From: a virus
Taxonomy: Duplodnaviria; Caudoviricetes
Reading direction: 5' to 3' (one strand)
Virus record (IMG/VR): IMGVR_UViG_3300031992_000040
Span: 44,675-108,674 of that record
Length of the DNA: 64,000 nt
Made by a program: the position numbers and the translations under genes
In this document: piece by piece, positions 7,097-42,057 of the stretch
Numbering within the stretch: the stretch's first letter is position 1
Layout: the number at the start of each line of letters is the position of its first letter
Notes under the pieces: model-generated
What the model was told of the DNA's origin: nothing
What the model saw: the letters and a program-made list of their open reading frames with translations, nothing else
Database searches by the model: none

Positions 7097-7197
7097 ACCG
7101 CATTATTTTTTTAAAAAAGACTTGTAATTGACCTCTGGTTATGTTATCTTGATATTAATATTGATGGTATTGTGACCATAAAAACGAGGTGATTTTT

Positions 7198-8196
7198 ATG
7201 AGAAGAATTTATTTTGACAATGCGGCGACAACACCCATAGAAAAGTCTGTATGGAAGTGTATGAAGCCGTTTTTTGTTAGCATATATGGAAACCCTAGTA
7301 GTGCTCATAACGAGGGCAGACGAGCTCATTTCTATGTTGAGAGCTCTCGAAATAATATTGCAGAACTTTTGAAATGCAAACCAGAAGAAATATTCTTCAC
7401 GAGCGGAGCAAGCGAATCTAATTCTTGGATTTCAAAAAATTTATGCTATTGGTGTGACCCTTGGTCTCACGATTCTATGAAGATGGCAAATAAAAAAAAT
7501 GATGCAAAAGTTAAAGCTCATTCATTCCCCTTGGTGGACAGCGAAATGGGACAAAAGACTAAGTTTTCAGATAAAGATTTTTTTGTTCATTTAGATTTAA
7601 CTCAAGCCATAGGGAAAGTAGATATTGATTTATCTAATTCTTTAATTGGTTCGGCTTCGTTTAGTGCTCATAAATTTGGAGGCCCGAAGGGTGTGGGCGT
7701 TTTATATATAAATAGCTTATTACAAAAAAGAATAGAACCTTTAATCTATGGTCATCAAGAAAGAGGATTGCGTGGGGGGACAGAAAATGTTCCTGGTATT
7801 GTTGGTATGGCAGAAGCTTTAAGGTTAGCCATAGAAAATAAAGATAAAAATATAGCTAAAATAAAAAAGGTTAGAGATGCTATTTTAAGTAGAATATCAA
7901 GAAATAATAAGATAGAAGTATATTCTTCATCGAATATTATAAATATAAAATTCAAACATTTAAAAGCATATAGTGCTGTGCAGATTTTTAATCAATATGG
8001 AATTGATATTTCTGCGGGGAGTGCTTGCAATTCTGGTTCTGATGAACCATCGGAGTCATTAACCTCTAGGGGCTTTACAGAAGATGAGGCTTTAAGGACA
8101 ATAAGAATATCTCTCAGTCATCATAATACTGTTCGGGAAGCAAAAAAATTCTGCAAAATATTAAACAGAATAATTGACACCTATGATAAAGAATAG
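7198..8196 (+). CDS. iscS: Cysteine desulfurase (IscS/NifS family, PLP-dependent), compact
   Basis: YFDNAATT, YGNPSS, FTSGASES, SAHKFGGPKG (PLP Lys), RGGTENV, SAGSAC (catalytic Cys); RBS GAGGTG favours the ATG at 7198. Confidence 0.85.
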   Translation: MRRIYFDNAATTPIEKSVWKCMKPFFVSIYGNPSSAHNEGRRAHFYVESSRNNIAELLKCKPEEIFFTSGASESNSWISKNLCYWCDPWSHDSMKMANKKNDAKVKAHSFPLVDSEMGQKTKFSDKDFFVHLDLTQAIGKVDIDLSNSLIGSASFSAHKFGGPKGVGVLYINSLLQKRIEPLIYGHQERGLRGGTENVPGIVGMAEALRLAIENKDKNIAKIKKVRDAILSRISRNNKIEVYSSSNIINIKFKHLKAYSAVQIFNQYGIDISAGSACNSGSDEPSESLTSRGFTEDEALRTIRISLSHHNTVREAKKFCKILNRIIDTYDKE

Positions 8197-29209: not shown

Positions 29210-29285
29210 TGGTGGAGCATACAGGGGTCGAACCTGCGACCTCCACGGTGCAAACGTGGCGCTCTCCCAGCTGAGCTAATGCCCC
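29210..29285 (-). tRNA. tRNA-Ala(UGC)
   Basis: Canonical 76-nt cloverleaf GGGGCAUUAGCUCAGCUGGGAGAGC...UGC...GGUUCGA...CCA with G3:U70. Confidence 0.95.
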
Positions 29286-29536: not shown

Positions 29537-29610
29537 TGGCAGAGAGCGTAGGAATTGAACCCACTCGACTTGAGATTTGGAGTCTCAACGGCAACCATCG
29601 CCTGCTCCCC
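29537..29610 (-). tRNA. tRNA-Trp(CCA), atypical structure
   Basis: 74 nt; anticodon loop CUCCAAA, T-arm GUGGG-UUCAAUU-CCUAC, G73 and encoded CCA; short D-arm. Confidence 0.8.
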
Positions 29611-33202: not shown

Positions 33203-33481
33203 TTAATTTCCTTCATAATAATCATCCACTGTGCCACTTAAATCATTAAATATAATCATTATTTCAGTTTCCCATCTTGAATTTTGTGGAGCAAAGTTTT
33301 GAGATAATATTCCTGCTAAATTATCCCAATCCATATATGCAAGTTCAGGAGCACGGTAGCGACTATCTCTTTTTACTTTTTCTATTTGTTCAATAATATT
33401 AGCAACTCTTTCTTCATTAAAATCACATTGTTCATCTATAACTTTAATAATTTTATCTGCTACATCTACTATATTTCTCAT
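33203..33481 (-). CDS. Hypothetical protein
   Basis: RBS AGGAG; operon packing. Confidence 0.55.
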   Translation of the reverse strand: MRNIVDVADKIIKVIDEQCDFNEERVANIIEQIEKVKRDSRYRAPELAYMDWDNLAGILSQNFAPQNSRWETEIMIIFNDLSGTVDDYYEGN

Positions 33482-33488
33482 ATTCTAT

Positions 33489-34004
33489 TTACTCCTGACT
33501 TTCTAAATTGTGTTTATGATAACAATATAACATATCAAATCCAGCCGAATAATTTACATTTTTCCAATCAATCTTCTGTTCAATATCATCAACCACTTTA
33601 GTCATATAAGGTTTTAAATCAATAAATAATTTGTAAAAAGTTTTACCAATATATTCGTCACTAAAAGCAAAACTTAATTTTGAATAAGTTAAAAAATTGC
33701 CTTTATAATCTGTTATTAATAATTCACATTCGTCACAATATTTTCTAAAAGATAATTCACTACTTCTACTAACTGGTTTATCATAATAACCTTTGCAACC
33801 ATATTTATCTCCATCAGGTAAATCATTATATTCTTCTTCTGATATAAATTCTTTTTTTAAAGGTTTATTTTTAGTTTCATATACGACTAAATCATCTCCA
33901 CTGAAGCCTAATGGTGCAACATTAGTTATTTCATCATTTCTTATTTTTTTTACATAATTAATAAAATCTTGTTCTGTTATTTTATTTAATTCTTTCATAA
34001 GCAA
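33489..34004 (-). CDS. Hypothetical protein
   Basis: Operon packing. Confidence 0.55.
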   Translation of the reverse strand: MLMKELNKITEQDFINYVKKIRNDEITNVAPLGFSGDDLVVYETKNKPLKKEFISEEEYNDLPDGDKYGCKGYYDKPVSRSSELSFRKYCDECELLITDYKGNFLTYSKLSFAFSDEYIGKTFYKLFIDLKPYMTKVVDDIEQKIDWKNVNYSAGFDMLYCYHKHNLESQE

Positions 34005-34022
34005 TTCACTTCACTTTCTACT

Positions 34023-35219
34023 TTATTCGCTAGCTTTAAAATTATATATTGGCTTTATTATTTTTTCTACTTCAACTGTATCTTTTATACGTTCTAATAT
34101 TTCTTGCATTGGTTTATATACCATAGGTGCTTCATCTATTGTTTCCTCATTTACTGATGTTGTATATATACCGTCCATTGATTTTTTGTAATCATCAATA
34201 TTTAATGTTTGCCTTGCTATGTTTCTTGACATTGTTCTACCAGCTCCGTGTGGTGCAGAATAATTCCAATCTTCATTGCCTTTACCAATGCCTATAATAC
34301 ATCCATCTCTCATATTCATAGGTATAATAACTTTTTCACCTTTTCTTGCTGATATTGAACCTTTTCTAACAATGTTATCTTCAAAATTTATATAATTATG
34401 AATACATTGGAAATAATCTTCACTTAATATACTCATCTCTTTACAAATTTTATAAGCAATATAACTTCTATTTAATAATGCAAACTCTTGACATAGTTTC
34501 ATATCGTGCAAATAATCTTCTCTATCTTTTCCTTCTAAATAACATAAATCTTTTGGCAATTTAGTTTTTCCATTATATTTAGCATTAATTTCTGTTAATA
34601 CTTTTTGTATTTCCTTTTCTCTGCCTTGTTCTTTATATTCTTTAATTACTTTTTGCTTTTCATCGTTCATTTCTTTTTTGTATGAACAATATTCTATCGC
34701 TTTATTTTGATATATTTCGGCAACTTGTTTTCCTAAATTTCTCGAACCCGTATGAATAACTAAATATTTGTTATTTTCATCATCAACATCAATTTCAATA
34801 AAATGATTACCACCACCTAGTGAGCCTAATGACTTTTCTAACCAACCATCTTTATTTTTTAATTCTTTATAACAATATAATTGAGTAAAGTCATAATCTT
34901 TAACTTTTTTTTCATGAACATTCATTCCACTTGGTATATATTTTCTAATAATCTTATCTAATTTCTCTAAATCTAATTCTATATTTCCTAAATTGACACA
35001 TAACATACCACAACCAATATCAACACCCACTATGTTTGGTATTACTTTATCACCTAAATTGCCAGTAAAACCTATTACGCAACCTGCTCCTGCATGAACA
35101 TCTGGCATTATTCTAATTTTACAATCTTTAAATGCTTCTTGTTCTAATAATAAATCAATTTGTTCTTTTGCGCTTTGTTCTATATTGTTTGTAAATATTT
35201 TTAAGTCTTTCATAATCAA
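34023..35219 (-). CDS. rtcB: RtcB family RNA 2',3'-cyclic phosphate/5'-OH ligase
   Basis: MPDVHAG, VGVDIGCGM, GSLGGGNHFIE, HTGSR, HNY, SAPHGAGR, DEAPMVYK. Confidence 0.93.
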   Translation of the reverse strand: MIMKDLKIFTNNIEQSAKEQIDLLLEQEAFKDCKIRIMPDVHAGAGCVIGFTGNLGDKVIPNIVGVDIGCGMLCVNLGNIELDLEKLDKIIRKYIPSGMNVHEKKVKDYDFTQLYCYKELKNKDGWLEKSLGSLGGGNHFIEIDVDDENNKYLVIHTGSRNLGKQVAEIYQNKAIEYCSYKKEMNDEKQKVIKEYKEQGREKEIQKVLTEINAKYNGKTKLPKDLCYLEGKDREDYLHDMKLCQEFALLNRSYIAYKICKEMSILSEDYFQCIHNYINFEDNIVRKGSISARKGEKVIIPMNMRDGCIIGIGKGNEDWNYSAPHGAGRTMSRNIARQTLNIDDYKKSMDGIYTTSVNEETIDEAPMVYKPMQEILERIKDTVEVEKIIKPIYNFKASE

Positions 35220-35366
35220 TTCACTTTACTTTCTAAACTAAAATATAATTCCGATATGGAACATCTATCATCGAAATAAATTTTGTTTCAAATATTACTG
35301 TTTTTCCCTTTTTATCTTTATATAAATACAATGCTTTTGTATATTTCATCACCATTCACTCCACTT

Positions 35367-36248
35367 TTATTTTTTTATTATTTGAAACATTTCTGTTATT
35401 GATTTTTTTAATGGATAACCTTCTTTTACCAAAGAACTTTTGTGAAAAGTTTTATTTACTGCGTCTATATAAAAACTCGTTTCTCCATCATTGCCCTGAT
35501 AAATAGTCTTCCATTGTTCTTCTGTAAATATATGTTGTGGCTCTAATTGTTCAATAGCCAAATTATCCAATGAAATCAATTTAAACTTTTTTATATATTT
35601 ATCAAGATTATTCTTTAACCATTCAATTTTACCGTCAACATCTTTGTCTTGTTCTCTGTATTTTATTCCTCTTTCTAAGTTTTTATACCCGAGTATAAGT
35701 ATTTTACAGTTAAATTGTGAAAGATAGTCAAATACATCTTTACCGTGAACTCCTGCAATTAAATGTATTATTGCATTATCATTTTCTGCTACATTTTTCC
35801 ATAGCAAATCAAACCTTGCTTTATATGAAACACCCAATCCTTTTATTAAATCCTCATCAATAAGTTCGTTAATAAGCATAACTTTCTCTACAAATTCTGG
35901 TTGACTTACAGTCATATTTGCTATTATACCTTTTTCTTTCAATTTTCGTAAAAATGGTTTTAAATCTGGGTGAGTAGTGACAGAGCCACCACCAATAGCA
36001 CACTCTTCTCCTGCAATCATAGTGTCAATAAAATCTAGGTTCATAATATCTGCGTGCTTACCTTCTTGTGTGCAACCAGCATAACAATATGGACAACCGA
36101 CTTCACAATATTTAGTTATACAAAGGTCTATACTTAAAGGATATTCTAAATTTAGTTTCTCGTGGTCTGGATAATCCACAATTCTTGTTCCATCATCAAA
36201 AATGGATACTTCTGCATTTCCATTTTTATATTTATTAAGCAACTTCAT
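35367..36248 (-). CDS. Radical SAM enzyme (no SPASM domain)
   Basis: CEVGCPYC CxxxCxxC motif, AIGGG, ANMTV. Confidence 0.85.
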   Translation of the reverse strand: MKLLNKYKNGNAEVSIFDDGTRIVDYPDHEKLNLEYPLSIDLCITKYCEVGCPYCYAGCTQEGKHADIMNLDFIDTMIAGEECAIGGGSVTTHPDLKPFLRKLKEKGIIANMTVSQPEFVEKVMLINELIDEDLIKGLGVSYKARFDLLWKNVAENDNAIIHLIAGVHGKDVFDYLSQFNCKILILGYKNLERGIKYREQDKDVDGKIEWLKNNLDKYIKKFKLISLDNLAIEQLEPQHIFTEEQWKTIYQGNDGETSFYIDAVNKTFHKSSLVKEGYPLKKSITEMFQIIKK

Positions 36249-36447
36249 TATTTTCCCCCAACTTTCTTAATATATCTAACTTTTTTGCAACTTCCTCATA
36301 AGATTTTCCCATACAAATAGGAATATATCCATTAAAACATTTCTTTTTATATAAATCTTCGTTTATTTTTATTGCTTCTTCTAATGTTATTATATTATAA
36401 GCGTCTTGCTCTGGACTATATTCTCCTAAATAATACATATTAATCAC
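36235..36447 (-). CDS. Hypothetical protein
   Basis: Operon packing. Confidence 0.5.
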   Translation of the reverse strand: MINMYYLGEYSPEQDAYNIITLEEAIKINEDLYKKKCFNGYIPICMGKSYEEVAKKLDILRKLGENNEVA

Positions 36448-36860
36448 CTCTCTTTAAATATTTTTCTATCAATCCAAAAGAAAATGATACCACCAATTAA
36501 ATTGGCTATTATTGTTTCTAAAATAGTATTTGTATGCAATAAATACAATACTATAGCCAAAGTAGGTGTGCTAAGTTGCCATCTAAATAAATACAGTAGA
36601 AACTTTTTTATAGTTAATTTCCCTTTTCCAAAACTTCTTTTATTAATAAGTTCTACTAATTCTAAATTTTTATTATTTGCTCTTTCTAACTCTTTTGTTG
36701 TATCACATAAATCTTTTGCAAAAGCCTTTATTCCTTCATCTTTTATTTTTATAATATCATTTAATCTTTCAATTTCTTTCTTGTATTCTTCTATTGTTGG
36801 GTCTTGCCATCTTGTTAAAACCTCAACTTCTTTTCCATCATCTGCCATTATTCCTCCCAA
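36444..36860 (-). CDS. Coiled-coil protein with C-terminal membrane hairpin
   Basis: YLFRWQLSTPTLA...IANLIGGIIFFWIDR. Confidence 0.55.
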   Translation of the reverse strand: MGGIMADDGKEVEVLTRWQDPTIEEYKKEIERLNDIIKIKDEGIKAFAKDLCDTTKELERANNKNLELVELINKRSFGKGKLTIKKFLLYLFRWQLSTPTLAIVLYLLHTNTILETIIANLIGGIIFFWIDRKIFKER

Positions 36861-37180
36861 CCAAGTTCATCGTATTGCATTTGTATTGCTAATAATTCTT
36901 TTTTATTAAGTGGAGCACTAATTCTACAATTATGTTTTTTAGAATACGCCCCAATCCAGACTCTTTTTGTATAAAATCTAAATTCTATATCTTGTATAAA
37001 GTCTTCGTTTTCACTACGGTATAATATATACGGTTCATCCTGCGTTACCCAACCACCATTTTCTTTGTTATTAGAAATATTATGGCATATTTTTTTATAC
37101 CCAAGTTCAGCAAATAAATCTTCTGCCATTTTATTTTCCAATAGTGTAACGCAATTTTTGTTCACATCCGTCTCCGTCAC
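36848..37180 (-). CDS. Hypothetical protein (start uncertain)
   Basis: Operon packing. Confidence 0.45.
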   Translation of the reverse strand: MTETDVNKNCVTLLENKMAEDLFAELGYKKICHNISNNKENGGWVTQDEPYILYRSENEDFIQDIEFRFYTKRVWIGAYSKKHNCRISAPLNKKELLAIQMQYDELGWEE

Positions 37181-37412
37181 AATATATATGTCCGCTCAAC
37201 ATATATATATTATTACCGTAGTTAACGTGACGATGGCAATTAGGACATTCTACGGTATAATTTAACTCATCATCACTATTATTTTTATCGATTATTTTTA
37301 TTGGCGGTTGAGATAAACTTGCATATATATATTCATCTAAGCTTCTATCTACAAAATTTTCTCCAGTTATTGTGGCATTTATCATTTTTGCCACCAAATC
37401 TATTTTATTCAT
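37131..37412 (-). CDS. Zinc-ribbon protein
   Basis: CPNC...C-x4-C. Confidence 0.5.
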   Translation of the reverse strand: MNKIDLVAKMINATITGENFVDRSLDEYIYASLSQPPIKIIDKNNSDDELNYTVECPNCHRHVNYGNNIYMLSGHIYCDGDGCEQKLRYTIGK

Positions 37413-37413
37413 A

Positions 37414-38193
37414 TTAATTACCTTTTAAGAATACATCGTTTTCTTTTTCGTATTCTCTTAATTTATCCCAAAACTCTCCAGTTTCAAAAGTATATTCTTC
37501 CCAATATCTATCCCAATATTCATCTTTAATACAACCACGCTCATCTAACCATTCCTTTGGAGGCAATTCTCCTTTTTCGTTCATCCTATGGTCGCCTTCT
37601 TTATAGTCATATTCAAACCCTATTGTTTTAATATTATAGCCACGATATTCATCTCCACCGATAGTTATATAAGAATCTTTATTAAAAATAAATCTTTTTA
37701 AAAATTCATCGTCATTAAATACTTTATCAAAAAAATCTTTTCTATCAGCAAATTCTCCAACGTGGTCAACAAATGGGTGAAACCAACTTCTATCTAAAAA
37801 GTCATATTCTTCACTTTTTTCTCCATTTGTGTCGATACATTTGAAAATATCATTAGGTTTTGGGTCATTTTTATATGGTTTATATTCAACAATATTATAA
37901 ACTTCATTATATATTTTATTTATTCTTTCTTTAAAAGAGTTAACCATATCTTTTGTTATTTGATATTGGTCTTTACTCCACTCATACCCTACTAATTCAC
38001 GAATTGTAATATATAAATAGGCTAATTTCTCATCCCAATCATCGACAAGCCTACTTTCTTCTCTCCCATAAGCATAATTGTGGTCTAAACTATCATTAAG
38101 ATTATAATTTTCTTCATCAACTTCGTGTGGAATAACTAATGCGTGTGTAGAAGAAGAATTGGTTTCAAATGTCCCTTTTCTAATTAATTTCAT
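37414..38193 (-). CDS. FETNSSSTHA-motif protein, paralogue A
   Basis: N-terminal MKLIRKGTFETNSSSTHALVI; FVDH; IGGDE; ends KGN. Confidence 0.7.
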   Translation of the reverse strand: MKLIRKGTFETNSSSTHALVIPHEVDEENYNLNDSLDHNYAYGREESRLVDDWDEKLAYLYITIRELVGYEWSKDQYQITKDMVNSFKERINKIYNEVYNIVEYKPYKNDPKPNDIFKCIDTNGEKSEEYDFLDRSWFHPFVDHVGEFADRKDFFDKVFNDDEFLKRFIFNKDSYITIGGDEYRGYNIKTIGFEYDYKEGDHRMNEKGELPPKEWLDERGCIKDEYWDRYWEEYTFETGEFWDKLREYEKENDVFLKGN

Positions 38194-38553
38194 TTACCAT
38201 CTATCTCCTTTATAAATACTCATAATTATTTTATCATCAAGTTCTTTTTGTTCAACTTCTGCATAATTATTTATATATTCTGGAGAGGCATTTCCATCTT
38301 CAATTACATCATAGTAATCACTTTCCATAAAATCATATTCGTTATCAAAATGCTCCCCATTATAATCTATAGAGCCATCTGCATTTCTTATGATTTTTTT
38401 ATCGTTATCACTTAAATCTTCAACTTCTCCAGTATAAAGATTTAAAACCTTTTCATTATTTTGCCAAGCCTTATAGTCTTCTTTAGACATAATTACAAGT
38501 GCGTGTGTGCTACTACTGTTAGTTTCAAAAGTATTTCTTCTTATTAATTTCAT
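38194..38553 (-). CDS. FETNSSSTHA-motif protein, paralogue B
   Basis: N-terminal MKLIRRNTFETNSSSTHALVI; RBS GAGGTG before the ATG at 38553. Confidence 0.7.
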   Translation of the reverse strand: MKLIRRNTFETNSSSTHALVIMSKEDYKAWQNNEKVLNLYTGEVEDLSDNDKKIIRNADGSIDYNGEHFDNEYDFMESDYYDVIEDGNASPEYINNYAEVEQKELDDKIIMSIYKGDRW

Positions 38554-38563
38554 ATTGACACCT

Positions 38564-39085
38564 CTAATTTCCTTTATAATAATGATAATAGTCTGGGTTA
38601 TCATCTAAATCATCTAAATCATAGCCATCATCATTATCATTTCCAGTTCTTACATAACCATCTAAAATGGCATTAACAAATAATTCTTCATTTCCAAATA
38701 TTTCATCAAGAAAATCCTTTAATTCTTCACAATGGTCTACATAACCTTGCATACTATCTAAATATCTCCATTTTAAATTTCCGTCATCATCATAACTTTC
38801 ATCAAATTTAGGCTCTTCAAATTCTATTTTTTTATAATAAGGACTTAATATATCTATGATTTTTTGTTTATATTCTTCATATTTGTCTGGATAAACGTCA
38901 CATATTGCTGTCCAAATGTAATCGGTAAGAGTATGTTTCCCATATTCCCATCCGAAATCACTAATTCCAAAATGAATAGATGGACGCTTTCCATATAATG
39001 ATTTATCTATTTTTCTAGGAATTGTTATTGCGTGAGTTGAAGATGAATTTGTTTCAAAAGTTTTTAGTCTAATTATCTTTGTCAT
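38564..39085 (-). CDS. FETNSSSTHA-motif protein, paralogue C
   Basis: MTKIIRLKTFETNSSSTHAITI; YVDH; TGNDN; ends KGN. Confidence 0.7.
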   Translation of the reverse strand: MTKIIRLKTFETNSSSTHAITIPRKIDKSLYGKRPSIHFGISDFGWEYGKHTLTDYIWTAICDVYPDKYEEYKQKIIDILSPYYKKIEFEEPKFDESYDDDGNLKWRYLDSMQGYVDHCEELKDFLDEIFGNEELFVNAILDGYVRTGNDNDDGYDLDDLDDNPDYYHYYKGN

Positions 39086-39512
39086 TTTTATCACTCAATT
39101 CTGTATACTCTAAATATAGTTCTTTAAAACTATCATCTATTTGAGCATAATATTCGAACTTCTTTTGTTTATCAATTTCTTTAAATTTGCTTTCCATCTT
39201 TTCTTGAAGTTCCTTCATTCTCTTTTTTCTTTCAATTTCTTCTACCCAGTCTGATAAATTTATATCTTTTAAATATCTATATTCTTTTGCAGAAGAAGGA
39301 ATAAAATCTTCTTGACAAAATTCTTTATATACTTTCCCTATAAAAACTCCACATCCTATATGTTCAACTACTACAAAAGAATCTTCTTTTAATTTTTTAT
39401 TAGATGCCATAATAATACTATCTCTGCTATTAATTCTTAATATCCCACTAGCATATTCTACTGTGTAATAATATATTTTATTTTTACTTTTTTTCATGTT
39501 AATCTCTCCCAA
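39069..39512 (-). CDS. Hypothetical protein interrupting the paralogue cluster
   Basis: Operon packing; C-terminal coiled coil. Confidence 0.5.
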   Translation of the reverse strand: MGEINMKKSKNKIYYYTVEYASGILRINSRDSIIMASNKKLKEDSFVVVEHIGCGVFIGKVYKEFCQEDFIPSSAKEYRYLKDINLSDWVEEIERKKRMKELQEKMESKFKEIDKQKKFEYYAQIDDSFKELYLEYTELSDKNDKDN

Positions 39513-39969
39513 ATTCTATATCTTTTCCGTCTTGTAATACTTCTGCGAGCAAATCTCTTTCTTCATCTACAAGGTCTTCTAAAACTTCGCTTAAACTATG
39601 GTTCCAACTTATAAGTTGATGATTTATTACCGTTAAATCTTCAACATTTCCACTGTATTTAGGAAAAACAATTTTCTTTCCATAATTATCTGAAACATAT
39701 TGCTCAATTCTTTTGAAATCCCAGTTATTTTTTACTTGTTCAATTAAATCTTCATAATCTTCTGCATTATATTGATACCAACTTGCAATATGAGATACCA
39801 AATAAGACACTTTTTCTTCTAGTGTGGTCAAAGTTTCTTCTTCATCAAACCACCTTATCTTTATGTTGTTTCCAAAAGGAGCATAATCTTTTCCCAGTGT
39901 TCTTCCAATAGTTAAAGCGTGTGTGCTACTACTATTTGTCTCAAACACGCTATTTCTAATTTTTCTCAT
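39499..39969 (-). CDS. FETNSSSTHA-motif protein, paralogue D
   Basis: MRKIRNSVFETNSSSTHALTI; INHQ; ends FGRD. Confidence 0.7.
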   Translation of the reverse strand: MRKIRNSVFETNSSSTHALTIGRTLGKDYAPFGNNIKIRWFDEEETLTTLEEKVSYLVSHIASWYQYNAEDYEDLIEQVKNNWDFKRIEQYVSDNYGKKIVFPKYSGNVEDLTVINHQLISWNHSLSEVLEDLVDEERDLLAEVLQDGKDIEFGRD

Positions 39970-40348
39970 ATAATTGTTCCTCCAACATCTTTATTTTTTC
40001 TTCTAATTCATTAATTTTTAATTCCATAGCACCACCATTTAGCCATTTATTTAAATAACCTTCATCAAATTCACGATGTTGCACTACTGATTGACAAAAT
40101 AAGTCACAAGCTGTGCTTAACATTCTCTGTATTTGACACGCTTGTTCCCTATTTAAATGTGAATATTCTTCTTTTTGATATATTATACCTTTATTATCTT
40201 CTCCATAATAACAAACCATATCATAAGAAATTTCCCTAATCATCTTGAGAACTTCTTTTAGAGTTAATTTAGAACAAACATCTCTTAAAACCTCGTCCAT
40301 TCGTTCATAAATCATTTCATCATCATAAAAACTCTTCCTCGTCTCCAT
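39956..40348 (-). CDS. Hypothetical protein
   Basis: Operon packing. Confidence 0.5.
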   Translation of the reverse strand: METRKSFYDDEMIYERMDEVLRDVCSKLTLKEVLKMIREISYDMVCYYGEDNKGIIYQKEEYSHLNREQACQIQRMLSTACDLFCQSVVQHREFDEGYLNKWLNGGAMELKINELEEKIKMLEEQLYEKN

Positions 40349-40655
40349 CTTCTTCCACCTCCTTTGTTAATTCATCTACTGTTTTATTTGCCTCTTTTAA
40401 TTCAATTTTTAAATTTGACATTTCTTTCTTTTGCTCTTTTAATTGATTATATGCCTCTGCATATTTATCGTGATAATATAAGTATTGATTAAAACCCTCT
40501 GCCTTTTCTTCTAAAAGTGCCATATATTTTTGAGTTAATTCTCTTATTTCATTCTCTAAATCTTCTATTTCTTTATCTCTTTTTCTGTATTTCTTTTGAG
40601 GTCGATTTTTACCATCTTGATTTTCTTGATGATTTAAAATATTAAATATTCCCAT
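40323..40655 (-). CDS. Coiled-coil protein
   Basis: Heptad-rich; RBS GGAGG. Confidence 0.55.
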   Translation of the reverse strand: MGIFNILNHQENQDGKNRPQKKYRKRDKEIEDLENEIRELTQKYMALLEEKAEGFNQYLYYHDKYAEAYNQLKEQKKEMSNLKIELKEANKTVDELTKEVEEDGDEEEFL

Positions 40656-40667
40656 ATTTTTCCTCCA

Positions 40668-41156
40668 TTATTTAAAAAGATTTTTAAAATCTTCGTCCGT
40701 ATATCTCCTATTTTTATATTCGGTATTAAGATTTTTTGCTGCTTTCCATATCTCTGATATAAAAAACTGTCTCTGTTCTGATTGACACAATCTGTTTTTA
40801 TACAAATTATAAACTCTCCTAATTTCTATATCTTTGACTATCTCTCTCCTTTCCAATCTCTTGTCTTTTATTGCTTTAACAATTTTTGTGCATTGAGTTG
40901 GTTTTAAATCATTATTTTCTATATAATGACACAAATCGCTTAATTCTTCATCGACTCTTGATTGTTCATCATTTAAACTATCAAAATAATTGTCTATAAC
41001 ATATAATTTTTCACAAACTTCTTGTATTTTTTTTACAATTTCTGTGCAATTAATTTCTTCTTTTTCTTCTTCATATTCTTTAAGATTTTGTTCATCTTCT
41101 GTTGTTATAATATCAAGTTCTGCGATGTCTTCTAAACTTTTTACCTTTTTAACCAT
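40668..41156 (-). CDS. Helical hypothetical protein
   Basis: DLCHYIE...RLERREIVKD; RBS AGGAG. Confidence 0.55.
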   Translation of the reverse strand: MVKKVKSLEDIAELDIITTEDEQNLKEYEEEKEEINCTEIVKKIQEVCEKLYVIDNYFDSLNDEQSRVDEELSDLCHYIENNDLKPTQCTKIVKAIKDKRLERREIVKDIEIRRVYNLYKNRLCQSEQRQFFISEIWKAAKNLNTEYKNRRYTDEDFKNLFK

Positions 41157-41160
41157 TATA

Positions 41161-42057
41161 TTACTCTCCTAAATCATCTTGATGAAGCATTATATTTTTA
41201 ATTGCTTCCTTGTTTGAATGTGCATAAGTATTTGTTATTGCGATATTTGTATGACCAACCATATCACGAATATTACTAATTGGTGTTCCTTTATCTATCA
41301 TTTTTGTAATGAAACTATGCCTAAAAGTATGTGCTGAAACCTCTCGATACCAAGAAATACCTGCTTTCCTAGCAATTTTCTTTAGATATTCATTAAATTG
41401 ATGTAAACCCAAAGTTTTTCCAGTGTTCGTAATAAACAATAGGTCTGTATCTAAATTTAATTCTCTAATAATTCCTTTTCTTCTATTGTTAATAAATATA
41501 TTACACAAATATTGGCAATTAGGTGTAAACCATATTGTTCTTTCTTTATTTCCTTTACCGATTATAGTAGCATAACCATTTTGAATATCTGTGCAAGTAA
41601 TTTGTATCATCTCAGAAAATCTTACACCCGTAGTAGACAATATAGACATAGCCGCTTTCATTTTTGTGTTAATAGCAATATTCATCATTTGTTGCATTTG
41701 TTCTTCTGTTAAATATTTCTTTTCTTTTTGTTGTTGTTTTGGCGGTTTAAGTTGTTGTATCTTTTTATCAATATTATAATCTTTAACAAATTCTAAATAA
41801 TTAAATAATAATTTTACTGAAATTAATTTTATTTTTCTAGTTGCTGGAGAATTATTTCTATCTGTTAACATTTGCAACCAATCTATTATTGTTTTAGATT
41901 TTGCATTAGTCAAATCTTCCATATTTTCTATATTCATTTCCTTAATAAATTCTCTACAATGTTGAGAATAAAATGTAGCACTTTTTTCACTTTTTCCCTC
42001 AACTTTTAATTCATAAATATAGAAATCATCTATTAATTTTTCTAAATCTTTATTCAT
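41161..42057 (-). CDS. Tyrosine recombinase (XerC/D-like)
   Basis: TGVRFSE (R), GKGNKER (K), HTFRH (HxxR), GHTNI..T..Y. Confidence 0.9.
   Translation of the reverse strand: MNKDLEKLIDDFYIYELKVEGKSEKSATFYSQHCREFIKEMNIENMEDLTNAKSKTIIDWLQMLTDRNNSPATRKIKLISVKLLFNYLEFVKDYNIDKKIQQLKPPKQQQKEKKYLTEEQMQQMMNIAINTKMKAAMSILSTTGVRFSEMIQITCTDIQNGYATIIGKGNKERTIWFTPNCQYLCNIFINNRRKGIIRELNLDTDLLFITNTGKTLGLHQFNEYLKKIARKAGISWYREVSAHTFRHSFITKMIDKGTPISNIRDMVGHTNIAITNTYAHSNKEAIKNIMLHQDDLGE

Follow-up and report, generated by a model that had tools for sequence, protein, structure and literature searches.

Some radical S-adenosylmethionine (SAM) enzymes act on dedicated protein or peptide partners. One of them, the anaerobic sulfatase-maturating enzyme (anSME), serves many sulfatases, and the short invariant Ser-containing motif near the N-terminus of these partners comes to lie in a polar, metal-binding active site. 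Others mature ribosomally synthesized and post-translationally modified peptides (RiPPs), such as SkfB and SuiB, which are paired with SkfA and SuiA. A further kind of pair consists of an activase and a glycyl radical enzyme, the latter carrying an R-V-x-G-[YF] glycine loop in a 10-stranded barrel. Here we analyze four paralogous genes, referred to as A, B, C and D, together with the nearby gene R for a compact radical SAM enzyme. All of them are located on the minus strand of a 64,000-nucleotide stretch of viral DNA (Duplodnaviria; Caudoviricetes) that we call the window. It corresponds to bases 44675-108674 of the linear IMG/VR record IMGVR_UViG_3300031992_000040, which is 108,674 bases long and estimated to be 94% complete. 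The products of the four paralogues have the N-terminal sequence I-R-x-x-x-FETNSSSTHA in common, and we refer to its FETNSSSxH core as the tag. According to a profile search, A, B, C and D are the sole tagged copies in the whole record.

Tagged genes and the radical SAM enzyme gene

Genes A to D are members of a very large, uncharacterized and phage-borne superfamily that is defined by its N-terminal tag, for which the consensus is h-x-x-I-R-x-x-x-[FY]ETNSSSxH. The sequence [FY]ETNSSSxH was found in 196 of 197 open reading frames (ORFs) of the family, about 9 residues from the start and with I-R ahead of it. Searches with C, the canonical member, gave 167 homologues of similar length at E ≤1e-3. 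With a profile based on an alignment of 39 C-type sequences, 4,238 representatives were detected at E ≤1e-3, 1,906 at 1e-10 and 373 at 1e-30, each of these being the representative of a cluster at 50% identity. The superfamily extends over phages of Firmicutes-like hosts, Prevotella megaphages and cyanophages, and tblastn detected relatives in 15 records of Lak megaphages and in 9 of Microcystis phages.

The genetic context was studied in a tag-anchored sample of 80 IMG/VR loci around C-type relatives, which together with the window makes 81 sources, and in which ORFs were called afresh. Family members were present in 81/81 sources, with at least 2 copies in 72 of them. A homologue of R was located within 8 kilobases (kb) in 78/81, nearly always on the same strand and just downstream of the tagged genes; the misses are L006, L020 and L002, the last of these being truncated by the contig end. 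In a separate assembly collection, made up mostly of metagenome bins, an R homologue was detected within 6 kb in 45 of 58 loci, and most of the misses concerned short contigs. The linkage was also found in the opposite direction. Thus, at least one tagged gene was present in 79 of 80 loci anchored on the enzyme gene, the sole miss being cut 180 bases upstream of that gene. These 80 loci contain a long-class tagged gene in 67 cases, a short-class one in 65 and both in 55 (the classes are described below). Long-class genes are usually accompanied by short-class ones. In 63 of the 80 loci a short-class tagged gene immediately precedes the enzyme gene, the median distance between the two being 21.5 nucleotides. 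No other gene family was common to more than 36 of the 81 sources; a gene cluster encountered near the module at 43 loci was discarded as an antisense ORF inside the enzyme gene. The enzyme homologues themselves are diverse, forming 29 groups at less than 70% identity. Together, these results show a tight genetic linkage of the superfamily to one compact radical SAM enzyme with a single [4Fe-4S] motif.

The pairing is also seen in named phages. In Prevotella phage Lak-A2 the enzyme gene is followed by five tagged genes, and in Microcystis phage MaMV-DC (L144, 136630-145013) a tagged gene and a transposase gene precede an enzyme gene annotated as 'Fe-S oxidoreductase'. A neighbour in MaMV-DC annotated as 'putative seryl-tRNA synthetase' found no support in Pfam. 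No fusions of tagged protein and enzyme were found: none of 206 enzyme ORFs carried a tag, no tagged fusion was present among the best 120 near-length enzyme homologues, and no longer, fused homologues of C were found. Some metagenome-bin contigs deserve separate mention. L139 and L142, labelled Prevotella and Fibrobacter, have nine tagged genes within 7 kb, and no radical SAM homologue was detected within their 6-kb flanks. The 77.6-kb contig L088, binned as Methanobrevibacter sp., contains a near relative of the whole module of the window, with six tagged genes, the enzyme gene and a C-type protein that is 83% identical; its archaeal placement is probably a binning artefact because the next nearest copies come from Bacilli bins.

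Gene R is located at 35367-36248 and encodes a protein of 293 amino acids (aa). It belongs to the radical SAM enzymes, as it has a CxxxCxxC motif (CEVGCPYC, encoded at 36084-36107) on a partial TIM barrel. In sequence searches, PF04055 was matched with E 6.6e-5 and 23.6 bits, under the cut-off of 29.5, and phrog_16999 ('Fe-S oxidoreductase') with E 1.3e-41. The best NCBIfam match was the NrdG2 activase (E 1.2e-3; 18 bits vs a cut-off of 131), and there were weak matches to viperin (NF038283, E 8e-3; PADLOC pVip, E 4e-4) far below the family cut-offs. The cysteines C48, C52 and C55 of the CxxxCxxC motif are invariant in 27 aligned enzyme sequences. No further cysteine conserved at 90% or more was found, either in 29 representatives less than 70% identical to each other or in the 27-sequence alignment. 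As only C48, C52 and C55 are conserved, the enzyme has no auxiliary cluster of the SPASM or twitch kind, unlike maturases such as SuiB, SkfB, anSME and CteB, whose additional conserved cysteines hold one or two auxiliary Fe-S clusters. Conservation extends to residues Y7, N9, G10, N11, G20 and T21 near the N-terminus, where three short strands lie ahead of the barrel.

The model of R has a predicted local distance difference test (pLDDT) score of 94.3 and a predicted template modelling (pTM) score of 0.91, and its barrel matches many radical SAM structures with Z scores of 10-18. CteB, SuiB and SkfB ranked first in a Foldseek search (3.5e-7 to 3e-6). The highest scores obtained with VIA-align were those for SkfB (Z 17.8, 265 residues aligned) and SuiB (17.6, 275 aligned), followed by viperin (16.3), EpeE (16.0), ChlB/PqqE (13.9), anSME (13.6), MoaA (13.3) and PFL-activase (11.0). 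The alignments with SkfB and SuiB both take in the three-stranded N-terminal extension of R. Since these two score highest, R is most similar to radical SAM enzymes that modify peptides, and viperin follows at a short distance. Judged by its model, R looks like a protein or peptide modifier, and clearly less like the glycyl-radical activases.

Some of the related enzyme genes are interrupted. The enzyme gene at L137:3629-5701 (691 aa) carries an intein with a LAGLIDADG endonuclease (PF14528, E 2e-10; PF14890, E 3.5e-8), the one at L021:5107-7545 is split into two ORFs, the second of which starts with an intein-like end, and two enzyme homologues of about 500 aa contain a NUMOD4 domain. Inteins and homing-endonuclease inserts usually sit in genes that a phage cannot do without.

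Although the tag is common to all members, the regions behind it, here called bodies, are not. When 379 unique tagged proteins were clustered by body alone they formed 21 clusters. The long class, with 201 unique sequences including A, C and D, has the consensus GEFGW ... Y ... GYIDH ... GNDN ... K-N; in more general form, its motifs are GW, Y-x-x-T, [DN]H, G-[NG]-D-[NE] and, in most cases, KGN-stop. C carries the full set of these motifs; A has Y-x-x-x-T, DH, GGDE and KGN, D resembles the class more weakly and B falls outside it. The short class comprises 127 unique sequences of about 92-176 aa that have no DH or GNDN and possess an exact C-terminus of their own, VAFGxYGY[DNER](G)-stop. Invariance of the tag is no less strict in these 127 proteins and in other classes without DH and GNDN than in the long class. 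Its conservation is therefore not explained by a site containing DH and GNDN alone, and the tag has a role of its own.

Very little of this has been catalogued. The sole catalogued families matched are PHROG 28997 and PHROG 16999, both of which are automatic clusters. PHROG 28997 ('unknown function') matched C (2e-11), A (6.5e-6) and D (3.7e-3); B matched neither family, and the library descriptions contain no link between the two. Pfam gave nothing credible for A-D, for the untagged ORF between C and D or for 39 relatives, NCBIfam nothing for A and C (the two that were scanned), and PADLOC no match for A-D. A set of 25 tagged proteins of other body types, out of 33 picked with up to 3 per minor cluster, had no Pfam match, and sequence searches of the PDB with C and with the C-type profile gave 0 matches. 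In those parts of the published literature that the searches covered, nothing was found on FETNSSS proteins or on phage-encoded radical SAM enzymes, and broader searches yielded nothing relevant.

Conserved residues and predicted fold of the long class

A first-pass annotation of the window, made from the sequence only, had proposed that A, C and D share a second layer of ordered motifs beyond the N-terminus. All strings that it quoted were located in the genes named, on the minus strand. Gene C (38564-39085, 173 aa) has its tag at 39032-39058 (residues 10-18), followed by FGWE at 38945-38956 (44-47), TDYIWT at 38909-38926 (54-59), YVDH at 38732-38743 (115-118), TGNDN at 38633-38647 (147-151) and KGN-stop at 38564-38575. 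Gene A (37414-38193, 259 aa), which represents the A-type of the long class and has a C-terminal extension, contains the tag at 38143-38169 (residues 9-17), EKLAYLYIT at 38005-38031 (55-63), FVDH at 37762-37773 (141-144), IGGDE at 37648-37662 (178-182) and KGN-stop at 37414-37425. In D-type gene D (39499-39969, 156 aa), also of the long class and matched by the family profile with E 1.1e-12, FETNSSSTH is located at 39919-39945 (residues 9-17), EKVSYL at 39799-39816 (52-57), INHQ at 39616-39627 (115-118) and FGRD-stop at 39499-39513.

For A and C the proposed second layer is borne out by similarity between the bodies. After removal of the first 25-26 residues, A and C were still aligned by BLASTP over 113 residues (E 4e-4), and this alignment takes in VDH and the strand preceding GGDE/TGNDN. 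In addition, a profile built only from C-type sequences gave a second match on A, at profile positions 96-149 (E 1.4e-4). The case of D is different. Its body was aligned with the C-type profile by hhalign over 80 collinear columns (E 0.0026) with a probability of only 12%, and BLASTP detected no significant similarity of the D body to C (E 0.56) or A (E 0.30). Because two alignments place INH of D 3-4 columns off the DH column and leave FGRD unaligned, the equivalence of INHQ with VDH and of FGRD with TGNDN remains a plausible proposal.

Within each type the motifs are strongly conserved. DEKLAYL, DH, YITIGGDE and LKGN are invariant in 12 unique A-type orthologues; in 17 unique D-type orthologues SYL is conserved, and INHQ and the terminal G-x-D show little or no variation. 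Among 39 diverse C-type relatives FETNSSSTH, GW, Y, T, DH and TGNDN do not vary at all, and the C-terminal YYKGN has its K and N conserved at 90% or more. In a wider alignment of 383 full-length long-class sequences, where the motifs could have proved unconserved, their columns are among the most conserved: those above 95% are R5, F9-S15, H17, G, W, Y, D, H, G, N, D and N. This conservation makes the long body look functional. The ending KGN-stop shared by A and C, to which the first-pass annotation had also drawn attention, is a genuine family trait. It is the commonest C-terminus in the family, being present in 81 of 196 tagged ORFs, and characterizes essentially the whole class with the full set of motifs.

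B (38194-38553, 119 aa) had been described as lacking the DH motif, as ending in YKGDRW and as a distinct type, and all of this agrees with our data. Its tag is located at 38503-38529 (residues 9-17) and YKGDRW-stop at 38194-38214; DH and NH dipeptides are absent, and so is GNDN. B belongs to a rare short class with a body cluster of its own, consisting of 9 unique sequences that end in SIY[KR]G[DE]RW, and it is composed of just the tag and a Gly-containing C-terminal strand. The B body is unlike that of the long class: it matched neither the long nor the short body profile, and hhalign against the C-type profile gave E 0.12.

An AlphaFold2 model of C was obtained with the 39-sequence alignment. 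Alignment, model and coupling analysis use a numbering of 172 residues, one less than the 173 of the ORF in the window. The model (pLDDT 88.0, pTM 0.84) is of the alpha/beta type, and residues 1-11, at the start of the tag, form the only stretch with a pLDDT below 50. The conserved motifs are situated at strand ends or helix starts. Foldseek found nothing in the PDB at E ≤1e-3, and the best of 48,161 chains compared by VIA-align reached a Z of only 2.7. A single match was found in BFVD, to an uncharacterized Myoviridae protein (6.7e-6), and the ESM Atlas (all plus named clusters) gave only viral 'hypothetical protein' clusters with scores up to 0.89. The long body is a confidently predicted alpha/beta domain for which no solved relative was found, although the negative fold searches carry little weight by themselves. 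None of the profile and fold searches favoured a relationship to HAD, SGNH, calcineurin-like, alkaline-phosphatase or archease proteins, or pyruvoyl self-cleavage at N|S.

Couplings between positions were calculated by mean-field direct coupling analysis (DCA) of the 383 long-class sequences (effective number 264). A18 and T16 are coupled with Y169, and T20 with H167, as would be seen if the first strand, which bears the tag, and the C-terminal strand were paired in antiparallel fashion. Further couplings connect R145 with H167, Y47 with D151 (the GW loop with GNDN), T58 with T146, and A59 with V115 (the Y-x-x-T helix with the DH loop). An apparent enrichment of inter-motif pairs (15 of the top 100 vs 3.9 expected) turned out to be an artefact of invariant columns and was rejected. 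Taken together, the analysis suggests that the motifs of the long class cluster in space, and a metal-binding or catalytic pocket in this class is plausible.

Interpretation of the tag and of the neighbouring genes

The tag is invariant in front of unrelated bodies and the tagged genes are linked to the enzyme gene. The simplest reading of these facts is that the enzyme recognizes, and probably modifies, the tag. The tag would then serve as a handle, the same in all partner proteins, for recognition by the radical SAM enzyme, and the modification would probably proceed via hydrogen abstraction at one of the Ser, Thr, Asn or His residues of the tag. Such a system might operate in the manner of a RiPP maturase and its precursors, or of anSME and the many sulfatases that it serves. 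The first strand of the long-class proteins, which carries the tag, probably packs on the C-terminal strand, close to the DH and GNDN loops, and the modified tag and the polar residues could thereby contribute to one pocket, either catalytic or binding a ligand or metal. Short-class proteins may constitute a second kind of substrate or subunit. Tag recognition and probable modification by the radical SAM enzyme, together with a long-class pocket that includes the modified tag, is the best explanation that we can offer as a whole, and we rate its chances as about even.

Several observations weigh against this explanation. First, R does not have the auxiliary-cluster cysteines used by SkfB, SuiB and anSME, and its score with viperin, a nucleotide-modifying enzyme, is almost as high (Z 16.3), so that a small-molecule substrate is possible. 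Second, with the invariant columns masked, the inter-motif enrichment in the DCA dropped to 7 of the top 100 pairs vs 3.9 expected, a value equalled by 15% of random placements and hence not significant; for this reason the spatial clustering of the motifs is only suggested. Third, the C-terminal feature is not universal, because a Gly is missing from the last five residues of 78 of 379 tagged proteins, and some proteins stop straight after a GNDN-like motif. Fourth, the loci are not independent, given that 46 of the 80 tag-anchored ones carry one IMG/VR dataset number. Finally, the window itself is atypical. It contains no canonical short-class gene, and R, although on the same strand, lies 1.2 kb downstream of A, from which it is parted by four unrelated small ORFs.

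These four ORFs (36235-37412, minus strand; 93, 110, 138 and 70 aa) occupy the place where relatives mostly carry a short-class tagged gene. They have no tag and no match to the family, and Pfam and PHROG searches were empty except for one sub-threshold Pfam match of the 93-aa ORF. The latter (37131-37412), situated just downstream of A, encodes a zinc-ribbon-like CPNC ... CDGDGC arrangement, for which no family scored above threshold. Another untagged ORF (39069-39512, minus strand, 147 aa) is wedged between C and D. It is not a member of the family, as it does not match the tag-family profile; it matched phrog_3489 (E 7.9e-5) and, weakly, RpbA (PF10789, E 0.0077; phrog_1285, E 9e-4). RpbA is a phage RNA-polymerase-binding protein. 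Every long ORF of the window between about 44 kb and 33.5 kb is on the minus strand, and the GC content of the window is about 24-33%. A scan of 33400-41200 gave 57 promoter-like sites, compared with 52.9 in shuffled sequences, and no terminators on the minus strand. Genes for tRNA-Ala(TGC) (29210-29285) and tRNA-Trp(CCA) (29537-29610), also on the minus strand, are located near a switch in GC skew and gene strand at about 27-28 kb.

Directly downstream of R, on the same strand, lies a gene for an RtcB RNA ligase (34023-35219; PF01139, E 2e-58), which we treat as context rather than as an established part of the module. The 81 sources contain, as neighbours of the module, genes for a PNK-like kinase with an HD-like tail (36 sources), NifS (24), a deaminase (23) and a DRB0094-type RNA ligase (21). 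Company of the RNA-repair type is also seen at related loci, for example L014:6360-7277 and L061:5309-6487. These neighbours, including the RtcB gene of the window, hint at RNA repair or modification, though they are present in under half of the loci. An ORF in another part of the window (7189-8196) clusters with NifS-type cysteine desulfurases located near the module in 23 related loci, of which the member in L061 matched TIGR03402 with E 1.4e-111. The product of this window ORF may supply sulfur for the Fe-S cluster of R.

The company of such genes bears on an alternative in which the tagged proteins are adaptors. They would then be interchangeable specificity subunits whose tag plugs into the enzyme and whose body brings a small-molecule or RNA substrate. 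Many body types are found behind one tag, as would suit such subunits, the single-cluster enzyme has a viperin-like compactness (Z 16.3), and genes for nucleic-acid repair or modification (kinase, NifS, deaminase, RNA ligase and, in the window, RtcB) are frequent nearby. Pfam scans of the 25 minor-cluster proteins, the long class and A-D nevertheless revealed no nucleotide- or RNA-binding domain, and the neighbouring genes are, as mentioned, missing from more than half of the loci. We consider such an adaptor function unlikely. A more far-reaching proposal starts again from modification of the tag. According to it, the tagged proteins would represent phage enzymes of a new class, with a fold that has no counterpart among solved structures so far. 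Their catalytic residue or cofactor would be made from FETNSSSxH after translation by a dedicated radical SAM maturase free of auxiliary clusters, and the matured long/short pair would act in host take-over or against RNA-targeting defence. Such a role would explain the frequent RNA-repair neighbours; we give the proposal a modest chance.

The first-pass annotation had proposed that the His of the tag (STH), [DN]H and GxD form a metal or catalytic centre, with B as a distinct subunit type. Carried further, this becomes a model in which the long-class proteins are self-sufficient metalloenzymes whose tag His, [DN]H and G-x-D together bind metal, the radical SAM gene is no more than a frequent neighbour, and B is a non-catalytic subunit. 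Part of our data fits it. The E, H, D, H, D and N residues concerned are more than 95% conserved, the motifs are found at strand ends and helix starts in the model of C, couplings between flanking residues suggest that the motifs are near each other, and DH and GNDN are absent from B and from the short class. The single site is not supported in the form in which it was stated, however. The tag is equally invariant in the 127 short-class and other proteins that have no DH or GNDN, and the tagged genes are tied to a radical SAM enzyme that this annotation had left out of account, by a two-way linkage (78/81 and 79/80) that far exceeds that with any other neighbour. Moreover, no similarity to a known family of metalloenzymes was detected by sequence or fold. 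A self-sufficient metalloenzyme is therefore quite unlikely in our view: the extra conserved residues are real, and they are probably part of an enzyme-partner system rather than of a stand-alone metal site.

The top structural matches of R are RiPP maturases, and several partner genes with one common N-terminal region stand in tandem. The tagged proteins might accordingly be regarded as RiPP-like precursors, with the tag region as leader and the C-terminal tail (YYKGN; VAFGxYGYDG in the short class) as a core that is cross-linked and perhaps released. The termini lend this idea some weight, as an exact C-terminus is kept in each class and an aromatic-Gly ending is present in 233/379 tagged proteins vs 78/2,269 background ORFs. 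Yet the partners are proteins of 96-320 aa with a predicted folded domain (pLDDT 88), their invariant internal DH and GNDN would be given no role, the terminal Gly is absent from the 78 proteins mentioned above, the enzyme has no SPASM/twitch cysteines and no conserved protease or exporter gene is found nearby. Precursor function is thus improbable. We give hardly any credence to a glycyl-radical pair, in which R would be an activase placing a stable radical on a conserved Gly near the C-terminus or in GW: the single cluster, the best NCBIfam match (the NrdG2 activase, at only E 1.2e-3) and the presence of Gly in the last five residues of 301/379 tagged proteins vs 558/2,269 background ORFs speak for it, but R matches PFL-activase with a Z of 11.0 vs 16-18 for SkfB, SuiB, viperin and EpeE, the R-V-x-G-[YF] motif is absent from A-D, and the model of C matches no solved chain above Z 2.7.

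Comparison with known systems

Should the preferred reading be correct, that is, recognition and probable modification of the tag by the radical SAM enzyme, then an enzyme that recognizes an invariant protein tag without auxiliary clusters would represent new radical protein chemistry. A cofactor derived from the tag would be analogous to the generation of formylglycine and chemically new. For annotation, the tag and the adjacent enzyme gene mark a recognizable module in thousands of phage genomes.

Of the systems with which the module can be compared, glycyl radical enzymes and their activases (PflB/PflA, GrcA, NrdD/NrdG) also combine a single-cluster enzyme with partners that have a conserved Gly towards the C-terminus. 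The partners differ in that those described here are small (119-259 aa in A-D) and have a model that matches no solved fold, and in that the Gly is located 1-4 residues from the end and is absent from the last five residues in 78/379. Viperin resembles R in being a compact single-cluster enzyme of about 290 aa, and the match extends over 221 residues (Z 16.3). It differs in acting on a free nucleotide and in having no tagged protein partner, and the match leaves out the conserved N-terminal extension of R (model residues 1-35).

The system of anSME and its sulfatases is similar in its logic of one enzyme and many paralogous targets, and anSMEcpe matches R with a Z of 13.6. It is set apart by the fact that A-D have no (C/S)-x-P-x-R, the target motif that sulfatases carry in an alkaline-phosphatase fold, and R no auxiliary clusters; in addition, the model of C has no match above Z 2.7 to any solved chain, sulfatases included. 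SkfB/SkfA and SuiB/SuiA provide the top structural matches of R (Foldseek E 2-3e-6), including an N-terminal extension ahead of the barrel, and likewise consist of one enzyme whose gene adjoins those of partners with a common N-terminal region. In contrast to these pairs, the phage enzyme has no SPASM/twitch cluster, its partners are folded proteins of 96-320 aa instead of short peptides, and what the partners have in common is an invariant motif of 9 residues right at the N-terminus. In summary, what is known from other systems is a radical SAM enzyme with dedicated protein partners, and what is new here is the tag, the predicted fold of the partner and the missing auxiliary clusters.

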